Source: an uncultured Clostridia bacterium (lineage in GTDB: Bacteria; Bacillota; Clostridia; TANB77; CAG-508). From it: a stretch of 64,000 bases of DNA. The translations under genes and the position numbers were made by a program. The notes beneath the pieces are model-generated. The model searched no databases. It was not told the origin of the DNA and saw nothing but the letters and a program-made list of their open reading frames with translations. The stretch is from positions 2,499-66,498 of the forward strand of contig CALXPW010000002.1 of assembly GCA_944390365.1 (NCBI GenBank). The letters run 5' to 3'. Shown one piece after another: positions 2,398 to 19,449 of the stretch. Positions within the stretch are counted from its first letter, which is position 1; each line of letters begins with the position of its first letter.

Positions 2398-3609
2398 ATG
2401 AAGTTTGATATTGTCTCTACAATTTACTATATGAAATTACACATCGCTAATGACAGAGAAATTTTTACAAGAGATTCTTTTTCTACTGTAAACGCATCAT
2501 ACGATAAAATCAATAACGCATACACAATACTTAAGGAAAGAAATGGATTTAAAACTAAAAAAGAATACAATAAATATCTTTCTACTTATTCTAGCAGTAT
2601 ATGCAAATTATATAAATCTGATTTTGTTAGCGAAGCAAATGAATTAGGAACTCTTTTATTAAAATTTGTGAATTATGATTTTACTGATTTTAATTGTTTT
2701 GTAGAGTTTGTACGTGAATATGGGATACCCGGAATAGACTTTTATGATGTTAACAAAGGACCTAGCAACCCATTTAATAAATATATCAATTTAAATATTA
2801 CGAATGACAAAAAAAATATTTTTTTAACTGAAAATGATTTTATTGTAGTCTGCAAAAAAATTTTTGAAAAACGAAAGAAAATTCTAATAAAATATCAATC
2901 TGAATTTAAGAAATTAATTAATTTTACAAATAACCTATCAAATTTAGACTATTTGAGTGATTTTTCTATTGCTGATAGATTTTATATATATAAATATGCA
3001 AATGATGATTATATGGATATGTCACTAGAATTAAGTATTTTTATTACTCTTTTGTATGATATAGAACCCCTAAAGGATTTTAATCCTCATTTATTTTATC
3101 ACGTTAAAAGTAGTTTTGAAGAAAATGCAAAAACTATTGCGGAAAAGCTAAAAAGTTCTCATCCAAAATACGATAATGACCTTTTTCTATCTTTCTGCTT
3201 TAATTGTCATACAATCGAATCTGCTTGCTTTATAACTCTTTTAGAGTTAATAAAAAATGATACACCTATATATGTATGTAAAAATTGTGGTAAATATTTT
3301 ATTCCTTCTTCAAAAAAGAATACACTATATTGTGACAACATATATGAACATAACAAGACTTGCCAAGAAATTGGTGCAATGATAACTTATAATGAAAAAT
3401 TAAAGAAAGATGAAGTAAATGCATTATATAGGAAAACCTTATCAGCCAAAAAGATGTTAGCAAATAGAAATCCTGATATTCCAATATATTTAGAGAAATA
3501 TGAAAAATGGAAAAAAGAAGCTAATAAGTTCAAAGATGATATAAAACAAGGTTTGAAAACACAAGAAGATTTTAAGAATTGGATAGAAGAAACTAGAAAA
3601 AAATACTAA
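2398..3609 (+). CDS. mobile-element protein with C-terminal Cys4 zinc-ribbon-like motif (possibly DUF6076-like); paralog of 11952..13178
   Basis: RBS AAGGAGG lies 7 nt upstream of the ATG. C-terminal CKNCGKYFIPSSKKNTLYCDNIYEHNKTCQEIGAM aligns with CENCHQYFIPVNRKDEIYCNRPIKGTEKTCKDAGAM in the other copy. The family name is from memory only. Confidence 0.6.
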   Translation: MKFDIVSTIYYMKLHIANDREIFTRDSFSTVNASYDKINNAYTILKERNGFKTKKEYNKYLSTYSSSICKLYKSDFVSEANELGTLLLKFVNYDFTDFNCFVEFVREYGIPGIDFYDVNKGPSNPFNKYINLNITNDKKNIFLTENDFIVVCKKIFEKRKKILIKYQSEFKKLINFTNNLSNLDYLSDFSIADRFYIYKYANDDYMDMSLELSIFITLLYDIEPLKDFNPHLFYHVKSSFEENAKTIAEKLKSSHPKYDNDLFLSFCFNCHTIESACFITLLELIKNDTPIYVCKNCGKYFIPSSKKNTLYCDNIYEHNKTCQEIGAMITYNEKLKKDEVNALYRKTLSAKKMLANRNPDIPIYLEKYEKWKKEANKFKDDIKQGLKTQEDFKNWIEETRKKY

Positions 3610-15707: not shown

Positions 15708-15842
15708 ATTTTTATATATACTTACTCTACTTTTTGTTAAATCTAAGCTATTCTTCGTAGTTTTTATAGGCAAGATTCCTAATTGTATAGACATACAATT
15801 AAATGGTTGCGTTATTGCTTTAGCAATTACGAACCATTATAT

Positions 15843-15908
15843 GTGGCTTTGCCACTAGATTTTACACCCAAAATTCACTTTGGGTGTTTTAATTTTGGGA
15901 GAACCCAA
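15843..15908 (+). promoter_or_regulatory. candidate oriT: three short hairpins immediately upstream of mobC
   Basis: GTGGC/GCCAC (15843-15855), ACACCCAAA/TTTGGGTGT (15864-15887), TTGGG/CCCAA (15895-15908). The position upstream of mobC-relaxase is the usual oriT location. Confidence 0.35.
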
Positions 15909-15947: not shown

Positions 15948-16259
15948 ATGAGAAAAAATAATAAACAAATTAATTTTATAGTTAGTGAAAAAGATTATAA
16001 CTATGTAAAAAGGCAATCTGAAAAAGCTAATATAACTTTAACTGACTATTTAAAATATTCAGCACTTAACAAGAACATATATGTAATTGATGGATTAGAT
16101 GATGCTACAAGAGAACTTGCTAAAATTGGAAATAACTTAAATCAGCTAACTAGACTATGTCATCAAGATGTTATTACTTGTTTAGATTTAAGTGAAATTA
16201 GAGAGCAGGTGAAACATATATGGCAATTATTAAATTTACTAACTCCAAATCAACTTTAA
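15948..16259 (+). CDS. mobC: MobC family relaxosome accessory protein
   Basis: Start moved to ATG 15948 (MRKNNKQINF). ELAKIGNNLNQLTRLCH is the MobC signature. The gene overlaps the relaxase start. Confidence 0.8.
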   Translation: MRKNNKQINFIVSEKDYNYVKRQSEKANITLTDYLKYSALNKNIYVIDGLDDATRELAKIGNNLNQLTRLCHQDVITCLDLSEIREQVKHIWQLLNLLTPNQL

Positions 16260-17470
16260 AACATATTATAAATTACATAACACAAGATGCTAAAACTACT
16301 ACTGAACTAATTACAGGAAAAGATTGTACTTCTGATAATGCTTTAGAAGAAATGCAGACTATAAAAAATTTATATAACAAAACAACTGGTAGACAATATA
16401 TTCATTTAGTACAATCTTTTTCCCCTAACGATAATTTAAGTTATGACAAAGCACATGAAATTGGATTAGAACTTGCAAAACAATATAAAGGCTTTCAAGT
16501 ATTAGTAGCAACTCATACTGACAGAGAACATGTACATAATCATCTCGTAATAAATTCTGTATCTTTTGAAGATGGTAAGAAATTTCAACAAAGTAAAAAA
16601 GATATGGAAAAAATAAAAATATATTCTAATGAATTATGTGCAAAAAATGGACTTTCTACTATTTCATTAAAAGGTAATTCAAAGGTTAGTAATAGTTTAA
16701 CACAGAAAGAATATCAAGTAGCAAATAAAGGTGAAAGTTGGAAAATGCAACTAATAAATGCCATTGACTATTCAATGGAAAATTCATTAACTAAAAATGA
16801 TTTCATATCAAATATGAATAATTTAGGGTATCAAGTTAATTGGACTGATACAAGAAAAAATATAACTTACACTACTCCAAGTGGAATGAAGTGTAGAGAT
16901 AATAAATTATATGATATTAAATATTTAAAGGAGAATATGCAAAATGAGTTTAATAGAAAATTTAAAAGAGAAAAATCAAATACCACAGCAAACACAAATG
17001 AAAGCAGAGTTTTACACAGTTCAACCAGAAACGTGGATAACTCTATTCAAATGGATAGAAGATACGAAGGACAAAATCAAAAATATGGAATACAAAATGG
17101 ACAAGCAAATTTCAATGGCAGACATTCTGAATACACTAAAAAAGGAACTTACAGAAACAATAAGAATACATCTGGAAGTTCAGATGATGAAATATCAAGA
17201 GGAATTGAAAGAACTACAAAAGATAAAATGGAAAAATATATTCAAAGGGATACCAATAGGTATTGTAATAGGTATTTTAGTAACCGTTCTCTGGATACAT
17301 TAGTATCCCTTGCCTATTTATTTGAAAATAGACAATATAATCAAAATAAACCTAAAAGAACAATAAGAAGTTTTAGGAGTTTAAGCAAACAAGCTAAAAA
17401 AGAATGGATTATGAAGCATAAATATTCAAATGGCTTTGATTGGTTTGAAGAAGATGAATGGGAAATGTAA
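16220..17470 (+). CDS. relaxase/mobilization nuclease domain protein (MobA/VirD2-type, HxDxxxHxH)
   Basis: N-terminus MAIIKFTNSKSTLKHIINYITQ. Metal-binding motif ATHTDREHVHNHLVINSV. The C-terminal approximately 170 aa are low complexity. Confidence 0.85.
   Translation: MAIIKFTNSKSTLKHIINYITQDAKTTTELITGKDCTSDNALEEMQTIKNLYNKTTGRQYIHLVQSFSPNDNLSYDKAHEIGLELAKQYKGFQVLVATHTDREHVHNHLVINSVSFEDGKKFQQSKKDMEKIKIYSNELCAKNGLSTISLKGNSKVSNSLTQKEYQVANKGESWKMQLINAIDYSMENSLTKNDFISNMNNLGYQVNWTDTRKNITYTTPSGMKCRDNKLYDIKYLKENMQNEFNRKFKREKSNTTANTNESRVLHSSTRNVDNSIQMDRRYEGQNQKYGIQNGQANFNGRHSEYTKKGTYRNNKNTSGSSDDEISRGIERTTKDKMEKYIQRDTNRYCNRYFSNRSLDTLVSLAYLFENRQYNQNKPKRTIRSFRSLSKQAKKEWIMKHKYSNGFDWFEEDEWEM
16944..17303 (+). 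CDS. nested out-of-frame ORF inside the relaxase gene (coiled-coil protein with C-terminal TM helix), speculative
   Basis: 119 codons open in a second frame of an AT-rich gene. AAGGAG lies 10 nt upstream of its ATG. The sequence looks protein-like (KELTETIRIHLEVQMMKYQEELKELQKIKW ... IPIGIVIGILVTVLWIH). Confidence 0.35.
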   Translation: MSLIENLKEKNQIPQQTQMKAEFYTVQPETWITLFKWIEDTKDKIKNMEYKMDKQISMADILNTLKKELTETIRIHLEVQMMKYQEELKELQKIKWKNIFKGIPIGIVIGILVTVLWIH

Positions 17471-17861: not shown

Positions 17862-18146
17862 ATGCTTATTAATCAAAATTTATTTGAAGAAGAACTTGAT
17901 GAGTTCTTTAATAATCTAATCAATTCATATCTAAACTATTTATCTCAAGAAGATGAAACTTATAAGAGGCTTGGCAAAAATAAAAATTCTTGTATTGAAA
18001 ATTTTCTAAAGGACTTTCCTAATACTAACGATTCTTTAGAAAAACTTATCAATCATATTTATTTAGAAAACCAGTATGAATCTGATGTTTTATATAGACA
18101 AGGTTTTATTGATTGCTTTAACTTTCTAAAACTTCTTGATTACTAA
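17862..18146 (+). CDS. hypothetical small protein upstream of the integrase
   Basis: Start moved to ATG 17862 (RBS GAAGGAGG). 94 aa, with no motif recognised. Confidence 0.5.
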   Translation: MLINQNLFEEELDEFFNNLINSYLNYLSQEDETYKRLGKNKNSCIENFLKDFPNTNDSLEKLINHIYLENQYESDVLYRQGFIDCFNFLKLLDY

Positions 18147-18162
18147 TTCAAGGAGGTTCAAT

Positions 18163-19449
18163 ATGTCAAAAAGAGGTCAAAATGAAGGCAGTATTAGACA
18201 AAGAAAAGATGGTACTTGGGAAGCCAGATATACTGTAGGTGTAAAAGAAAATGGAAAACCTAATAGAAAATCTGTATATGCTAAAACTAGAAAAGAAGTT
18301 AAAGACAAATTAAATGCTATTTTGTTATCTTTAAAAAATGGAACTTATACTAATTCAAATAATATATTATTCATAGATTGGCTTAGCAAATGGCTTGAAA
18401 CTTATGCTAAGCCTAACATAAAACTTGCTACATATACAAGTTATGAAACATATATACGAGGTCATTTGAAACCTTATTTTTTAAATATAAAATTACAATC
18501 TGTTTCAGCAGAAATGCTACAAAAATTTTTTAATTATAAGCAGAACAATGGTAGATTAGACAATCGCGAAGGCGGATTATCAGCTAAAACTTTGAAAAAT
18601 ATGTATAATATGCTACATGCTTCATTTAAACAAGCATATATTAATGGATTAGTTCAAACAAATATTGTTGAAACTATAAAAACTCCTAAAATTTTTAGAA
18701 AAGAAATGAGAGTCTTAACTAGAGAAGAACAAAATAAATTAATTCATGTCGCTAGAAATTATAGACTAGGAATTGTTGTAATATTAGATTTATTTACAGG
18801 AATGAGATTAGGTGAAATCCTTGCTTTGAGATGGTGTGATGTTGATTTAAAAGGTGAAAGTTTAATTGTAAGAAATAGTATTAAAAGATTATCTACACAT
18901 GAGAAAACATCTAAAAAACAAAATAAAACTAAATTAATTTTAGATACTCCAAAATCTCAAACAAGTTATAGAGAAATACCGCTTCTCTCTCCTATTGTTA
19001 AAGAATTAAAAACTCACAAGCAAAAACAAAAAATTGAAATCCTATTAGCTGGTAAATCCTATATAAATAAAGATTTTCTATTTTGTAATACAATTGGAGA
19101 GCCTTATGATCAGAAAACTTTTTGGAAAGAATATTCTTTAATGTTAATAGATGCTGGTTTACGAGAGAAAAAGGAAAAACCTATTAGAAATAAAATTAAA
19201 AAGAATATAAAATCCAAACTAAAATCTCATGCTGATAAAGTTCAAGTTACATTCCATACTTTAAGACATACTTTTGCAACTAGAGCAATTGAACAAGGTA
19301 TGGAAATTCCCGTACTTAGTAAAATTCTAGGACATGCTGATATAAGTACCACTTTGAATAAATATTGTCATGCTATTCCAGATAGAAAACGTGAAAATAT
19401 GGAGAAAATTGAGTGTTTATATAATGATAGCCTAGACAATAAAATCTAG
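18163..19449 (+). CDS. tyrosine-type site-specific integrase (intact)
   Basis: Start at ATG 18163 (RBS AAGGAGG; MSKRGQNEGSIRQRKDGTWEARYTVG). Catalytic signatures TGMRLGEILALRW, HTLRHTFAT and GHADISTTLNKYCH. Confidence 0.9.
   Translation: MSKRGQNEGSIRQRKDGTWEARYTVGVKENGKPNRKSVYAKTRKEVKDKLNAILLSLKNGTYTNSNNILFIDWLSKWLETYAKPNIKLATYTSYETYIRGHLKPYFLNIKLQSVSAEMLQKFFNYKQNNGRLDNREGGLSAKTLKNMYNMLHASFKQAYINGLVQTNIVETIKTPKIFRKEMRVLTREEQNKLIHVARNYRLGIVVILDLFTGMRLGEILALRWCDVDLKGESLIVRNSIKRLSTHEKTSKKQNKTKLILDTPKSQTSYREIPLLSPIVKELKTHKQKQKIEILLAGKSYINKDFLFCNTIGEPYDQKTFWKEYSLMLIDAGLREKKEKPIRNKIKKNIKSKLKSHADKVQVTFHTLRHTFATRAIEQGMEIPVLSKILGHADISTTLNKYCHAIPDRKRENMEKIECLYNDSLDNKI

Follow-up and report, generated by a model that had tools for sequence, protein, structure and literature searches.

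The relaxase gene of a mobilization module in an uncultured Clostridia bacterium very probably contains a second gene in the +1 frame which, judging from its relatives, is itself under selection. In the stretch of DNA analysed here (64,000 nucleotides, hereafter the window), we consider a separate mobB-like nested gene with a relaxosome-helper role to be the best explanation as a whole, at a probability of roughly 0.6. On the sequence evidence, it is the comparison with relatives, not the statistics of the window, that is decisive in showing that the nested open reading frame (ORF) exceeds chance.

The mobilization module and the open +1 frame of its relaxase gene

The host gene encodes a MobA/VirD2-type relaxase of 416 aa (16220..17470, + strand) with a match to PF03432 over residues 19-145 (126.4 bits against a gathering cut-off of 24.6, E=1.1e-36). 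Directly 5′ of it and on the same strand lies a mobC-type accessory gene (15948..16259), which carries NikA-like and MobC domains (PF21983, E=8e-16; PF05713, E=7e-10). The longest ORF of the accessory gene begins at a TTG at 15783, and in relatives the gene is called from the Met at 15948, giving 103 aa, as in the related loci L006 and L007. Two G+C-rich inverted repeats (window 15843-15855 and 15864-15887) sit inside this longest ORF and 5′ of the likely true start at 15948, and are candidates for the oriT inverted repeat. The 3′ side of the relaxase holds a ribbon-helix-helix gene, found by Pfam scan, and a 437-aa ORF at 18136-19449. The preliminary description had named this ORF an integrase; the naming is borne out at the equivalent gene of L006, which has phage-integrase Pfam domains, and for the window ORF itself it stays an assignment of that description. 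Since the ribbon-helix-helix gene and the integrase-type ORF come after the relaxase, the mob module is apparently part of an integrative mobilizable element. Elements nearly identical to it were seen in genomes of uncultured gut Clostridia and in many gut metagenomes. The host assembly (1.59 Mb in 73 contigs, 88.6% complete) holds the nested gene in one copy.

Within the relaxase gene and on its strand, an ORF of 119 codons plus stop (16944..17303) runs from an ATG at 16944 to a TAG at 17301-17303 in the +1 frame [(16944-16220) mod 3 = 1]. The start falls at relaxase codon 242, in the 3′ part of the gene and just past the PF03432 catalytic domain. Ten nucleotides 5′ of the ATG the sequence reads AAGGAG (16928..16933, + strand), an internal Shine-Dalgarno (SD) motif that coincides with the Lys-Glu codons within the relaxase motif Y-L-K-E-N-M-Q-N-E-F. 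The last 17 residues of the product (residues 103-119; 17250..17300, + strand) have a mean Kyte-Doolittle hydropathy of 2.5 and are predicted to form a transmembrane helix. The ORF, the AAGGAG and the C-terminal helix had been pointed out in the preliminary description, and all were recovered when coordinates, strand and frame were derived anew. Past the nested stop, the C-terminal tail of the relaxase (17304..17470, + strand) is coding in the relaxase frame only, as read from the relaxase alignment and the wobble pattern. A promoter scan of the + strand from 16403 to the nested start found no promoter-like site, which is consistent with internal initiation and is no proof of it. Contigs from chicken-gut and bovine metatranscriptomes span the mob region, although such contigs cannot tell transcription, strand, 5′ ends or translation.

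The relaxase begins with a catalytic domain (residues ~1-250), continues as a linker of ~115 residues where it passes through the nested gene, and ends in a C-terminal tail that is conserved. A search with residues 200-416 returned 855 homologues, mostly full-length proteins of 411-416 aa and down to 37% identity. In their alignment the catalytic domain and the tail, which ends in an acidic/aromatic motif, are conserved, in contrast to the stretch shared with the nested ORF. The AF2 model of the relaxase gives pLDDT values of 70-89 for residues 11-250 and of 26-47 for residues 253-367. The overlapping part had been described as low-complexity linker, and its hydrophilic N/R/K/S/T/E/G-rich composition agrees with this. 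The C-terminal tail is also found in short relaxases that have no nested gene.

How surprising an open frame of this length is depends on the protein it overlaps. Stops had been expected roughly every dozen codons; this was overstated, as a +1 run of at least 124 codons persists in 10.6% of 20,000 synonymous resamplings of the relaxase codons. The +1 frame is often open by chance because the hydrophilic linker residues, with few L/I/V/M, rarely make +1 stops. Codon shuffling over residues 242-416 gives P = 0.002 for an open +1 frame, and the window's +2 frame has a stop every 23 codons or fewer. Judged on the window sequence by itself, the open +1 frame is suggestive, weak evidence for a gene. 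The resampling figure speaks for the frame being a by-product of a hydrophilic low-complexity linker with no functional gene in it, and so does the fact that gene callers almost never call the ORF (28 representatives among 1.84 billion proteins). In the reverse test, with the nested protein held fixed, the relaxase frame was open in 0 of 20,000 synonymous resamplings, and its openness is therefore selected.

Conservation and selection among relatives

To compare the overlap with its relatives, loci were gathered through the relaxase N-terminal sequence only. This yielded 84 loci. Four came from genomes, through a query with the full-length relaxase whose matches all began at residue 1, and 80 came from metagenomes, through N-terminal motifs. 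With the window there were 85 genes, of which four run off a contig edge and three are broken. A +1 ORF of 106-180 codons at the identical start codon is present in 58 of the 61 complete long-linker genes, the window counted, and three lack an intact nested ORF. The 58 intact ORFs encode 50 distinct proteins and begin with ATG (53), TTG (4) or GTG (1). Every one of them has an SD-like motif ahead of the start and a hydrophobic C-terminus (score >1.6). The start lies 34 codons past the W of the WTDTRK motif, within Y-[L/S]-K-[E/G]-x-M-x-N-E-F, and the end lies 30-67 codons 5′ of the relaxase stop, right behind the hydrophobic helix. The +2 frame at the equivalent place in the relatives is mostly open for 5-35 codons. 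A clade of 12 short relaxases (329-363 aa) that lack the linker has neither SD nor start codon at the site, so that linker and nested gene co-occur; no nested-gene homologue was found downstream of these 12 relaxases either.

Several individual loci depart from this layout. At five loci (L037 and L045-L048) a deletion leaves a relaxase of 361 aa and a nested protein of 57 aa, and both frames survive because the deletion length is a multiple of three; the shortened nested protein retains the N-terminal motif and the membrane helix. One short contig (L100:1-750) has a relaxase-frame stop within the overlap and an intact nested ORF of 129 aa, possibly through error. A relaxase of 400 aa from another clade (L088:1498-2700) is without the nested ORF and has a hydrophobic segment in its own frame close to its acidic C-terminus.

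Substitutions were counted on nucleotide alignments guided by the relaxase protein, in which any bias would act against the nested frame. Counted over relaxase codon positions 1/2/3, pairwise differences are.121/.080/.248 upstream,.258/.194/.147 in the overlap and.130/.101/.257 downstream. The most variable position of the overlap is thus the third position of the nested frame, and the pattern reverts to the relaxase frame 3′ of the nested stop (17304-17470). The shift of the wobble position is clear in five of seven subfamilies and slight in a sixth, while divergence in the seventh is too high for it to be read. Changes silent in the nested frame only occur at a rate of 0.354 in the overlap and 0.13 in the flanks, those silent in the relaxase frame only at 0.168 in the overlap and 0.38-0.39 in the flanks, and within the overlap the doubly silent and doubly non-silent rates are 0.329 and 0.167. 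This inverted pattern of substitution classes was seen in all six subfamilies tested. Over the same bases, identity is higher for the nested protein than for the relaxase frame in 77 of 81 pairs. With a rate ratio of ~0.47, the nested protein is under moderate purifying selection. Because changes silent only in the relaxase frame are as frequent as doubly non-silent ones, the relaxase residues of the overlap evolve about neutrally, with stops not tolerated. In its sequence evolution, this part of the relaxase behaves as a neutrally drifting linker held open.

These comparisons bear on what the nested ORF is. A by-product of linker composition would not be expected to show the wobble shift in six subfamilies, the start codon and SD kept in 58 of 58 genes, the stop right behind a hydrophobic helix in every subfamily and a nested-frame identity above that of the relaxase frame, and we regard it as very unlikely. 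The preliminary description had suggested checking that the alternative frame is open in relaxase homologs and that substitutions look synonymous in it. Both hold, the first in 58 of 61 genes and the second as a preference within the overlap, and together they bear out the precedent it had drawn from RSF1010, where mobB is a separate gene inside mobA. On this sequence evidence the ORF is very probably a real, selected gene.

The same description had also raised the possibility that the relaxase itself shifts into this frame or that the gene is mis-assembled. A programmed +1 frameshift would give a membrane-anchored relaxase isoform and could be stimulated by the internal SD, and true frame breaks do occur in relatives, namely a 1-nt deletion in L006 and breaks at an A5 run in L001 and L003. 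However, the +1 frame of the window has a TAA (within TTAAAGGAG) six codons before the nested ATG, in the sequence contexts compared the majority of subfamilies have this TAA, or else a TGA, in the equivalent position, and a start codon (ATG, TTG or GTG) is always present at the site. Mis-assembly is opposed by the relaxase frame, which runs unbroken through the overlap into the conserved tail in hundreds of homologues of 411-416 aa, and by 15 loci from separate assemblies which, at 95-97% identity, show the same two frames. Neither suggestion is upheld, and we give next to no credence to a frameshift, programmed or artefactual, as the explanation.

In the circulating L006 variant (L006:4700-5450) the C at window position 17065 is missing (GATA-GAAGG) and both frames are broken; it was called as a 281-aa relaxase plus a 68-aa ORF (P0003, on six contigs up to 57 kb) and resembles a degenerating element copy more than it does an error of assembly. 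In L001 (400-470) and L003 (520-560) the relaxase frame breaks at the A5 run (ATAAAAAT) in the region of the catalytic domain. These two diverged loci have intact counterparts (P0025 and P0019) and are probably pseudogenes or low-coverage errors.

The nested protein and known mobilization systems

The nested protein is predicted to have a single tail-anchored membrane helix with the N-terminus in the cytoplasm. Its hydrophobic C-terminal 17 residues, with one or two residues past the helix, are preceded by a Lys-rich stretch (K-I-K-W-K), which gives the terminal hydrophobic helix and the positive residues on its N-terminal side predicted for a tail anchor. An AF2 monomer model places helices at residues 3-10, 28-54, 58-98 and 106-118 at low confidence (pLDDT 61). 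Between subfamilies the nested proteins are 13-30% identical and share a common plan in which an N-terminal (L/V)E.LK.(K/N)N motif precedes long helices and the membrane helix comes last. In a complex prediction, the relaxase with nested residues 1-100 scored 0.30 against a mark of 0.32, a value counted neither for nor against an interaction.

Searches of existing resources returned little for this family. Pfam and NCBIfam scans of the nested protein gave no family and coiled-coil noise only. None of 24 nested proteins matched Pfam DUF334 (PF03904) at E<=0.01, and for MbeB_N and MbeD_MobD there was no match of the window protein at E<=0.1 or of the 24 family members at E<=0.01. A tblastn search against plasmids gave no match, and a six-frame profile search of 400 genomes of the same class gave a convincing match in the window's own genome only, with three other matches that were weak and lay within long ORFs. 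Among the proteins of the database the nested-family profile found just the 28 representatives; the four that we looked up come from contigs of at most 1.4 kb, and the relaxase gene, where visible, is cut by the contig end or broken. The family is nearly missing from databases because gene callers skip same-strand nested genes, and it is in practice unannotated.

Small genes that lie inside a relaxase gene in another frame are known from several plasmids, and by its sequence context the window gene is the positional equivalent of mobB. The closest parallel in position is the mobCAB mobilization module of the staphylococcal plasmid pC221 (PMC10135026). As in pC221/pC223, mobC is followed by the relaxase (PF03432, MOBP/MOBQ-type), and pC221 mobB shares the strand of the relaxase gene, uses its +1 frame and, by relaxase alignment, starts at the homologous position. 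The Y-x-K-[E/G] codons (Y-E-K-G in pC221) supply the SD, the ATG follows ~9-10 nt later, and the product is helical or coiled-coil and then has a membrane segment. In contrast to the window gene, which is wholly nested and whose relaxase frame reads through to a conserved tail, pC221 mobB overlaps the last ~250-270 nt of mobA and extends far past the mobA stop. Its protein has several membrane segments, and its membrane domain is DUF334 (E=2.3e-65), whereas the window protein has one terminal helix, and hhalign of the nested family against pC221 MobB gave a probability of 0.5%, that is, no detectable similarity.

In RSF1010, mobB occupies a different frame inside mobA/repB (PMC2200642), and RSF1010/R1162 shares with the window a small accessory gene entirely inside the relaxase gene, in a different frame and past the relaxase domain. 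The host there is proteobacterial and the relaxase is fused to a primase; the likeness drawn here is one of layout. In R1162, MobB is reportedly required for efficient transfer, a finding attributed to Parker and Meyer in 2007, whose work PMC3297438 cites. In ColE1-type plasmids mobB and mobD both lie inside mobA; mbeB and mbeD are likewise small genes wholly within mbeA in another frame, although there are two nested genes instead of one and the relaxase is of the MOB-HEN type (PMC5935869).

Two clostridial plasmids use the same site. On C. perfringens plasmid NZ_CP134267 the overlapping gene has the same start site, frame and SD, the same first residues (M-S-L-I) and a coiled coil followed by a membrane helix, but its product is 360 aa long, runs 715 nt past the relaxase stop and has an extracellular DUF4352 domain. 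This gene (L095:2222-3304) shares 368 nt with the relaxase; the annotated DUF4352 locus (2537-3304) probably starts 315 nt earlier than annotated, at the SD-ATG inside the relaxase. Site, frame and SD are also the same on C. botulinum pBOT3502 (L094:1501-2791), where the relaxase ends at 256 aa, just past the nested start site, and the +1 frame holds ORFs of 54 and 119 aa in one frame with a single stop between them. The locus represents either a mob module in decay or a mobB-like gene that has been split. Because the pC221 and C. perfringens proteins bear extra membrane or extracellular domains that are absent here, functions may differ.

Proposed role and meaning

By analogy with these systems, a MobB-like helper function of the nested protein has a slightly better than even chance of being correct. 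The functional assignment draws on position and architecture only, because no similarity to pC221 MobB and no Pfam or NCBIfam family was found. The segment itself is very probably a dual-coding part of the mobC-relaxase module of an integrative mobilizable element in a gut Clostridia genome. Ribosomes that start at the relaxase ATG would read frame 0 and make there only a flexible, hydrophilic stretch that links catalytic domain and tail, while other ribosomes would start internally at AAGGAG-N10-ATG on the mobC-relaxase mRNA and read the +1 frame. The +1 product would be a protein of 119 aa in which a short N-terminal (L/V)E.LK.KN motif is followed by two long helices and, at the C-terminus, a membrane anchor. 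It is this protein that is under selection; the relaxase frame is kept free of stops while its residues drift. The protein may insert in the membrane, its helical part on the cytoplasmic side, and would help to hand the relaxase-DNA complex over to a helper element's coupling protein and type IV secretion system. This helper role is drawn from the analogy with MobB of pC221 and of R1162/RSF1010.

A real nested gene could also have another job, such as entry or surface exclusion, immunity, or the choice of the helper secretion system. All of the evidence for a real gene fits such a job equally. Fast divergence (13-30% identity) together with moderate selection would suit a protein that is specific to its partner or engaged in conflict, the C. 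perfringens counterpart carries its DUF4352 domain outside the cell, and MbeD of ColE1 has been described as a putative entry-exclusion protein (PMC5935869). However, the bulk of the nested protein is predicted to be cytoplasmic, which is where the relaxosome is, and with one or two residues beyond the membrane helix it would expose almost nothing outside the cell. The position of the gene also equals that of mobB in the pC221 mobCAB module (PMC10135026). We consider a job of this kind somewhat unlikely. A more specific proposal, which we regard as rather improbable, is that the nested protein, instead of being a generic relaxosome helper, is a fast-evolving, tail-anchored adaptor that chooses the coupling protein or secretion system of the helper, with the linker being its read-through and having no function in its own right. 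Such an adaptor would explain the neutral linker, the moderate selection and the low identity of the nested proteins, compared with 45-60% between the relaxase domains of the subfamilies.

For conjugation as such, the mobB-like reading leaves the present understanding unchanged, since RSF1010, ColE1 and pC221 had already established the layout. The nested gene is an unannotated further example of the "mobB inside mobA" layout and not a new type of system, and it would come as no surprise to those who specialize in plasmid mobilization. As a clean case of dual coding, with selection on one frame and the other just kept open, the locus can also serve to test methods for the detection of overlapping genes. 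The host relaxases number in the hundreds, compared with the 28 database representatives of the nested family. Those who annotate integrative mobilizable elements of gut Firmicutes, or who predict mobilizability, are thereby missing one of three mobilization genes.
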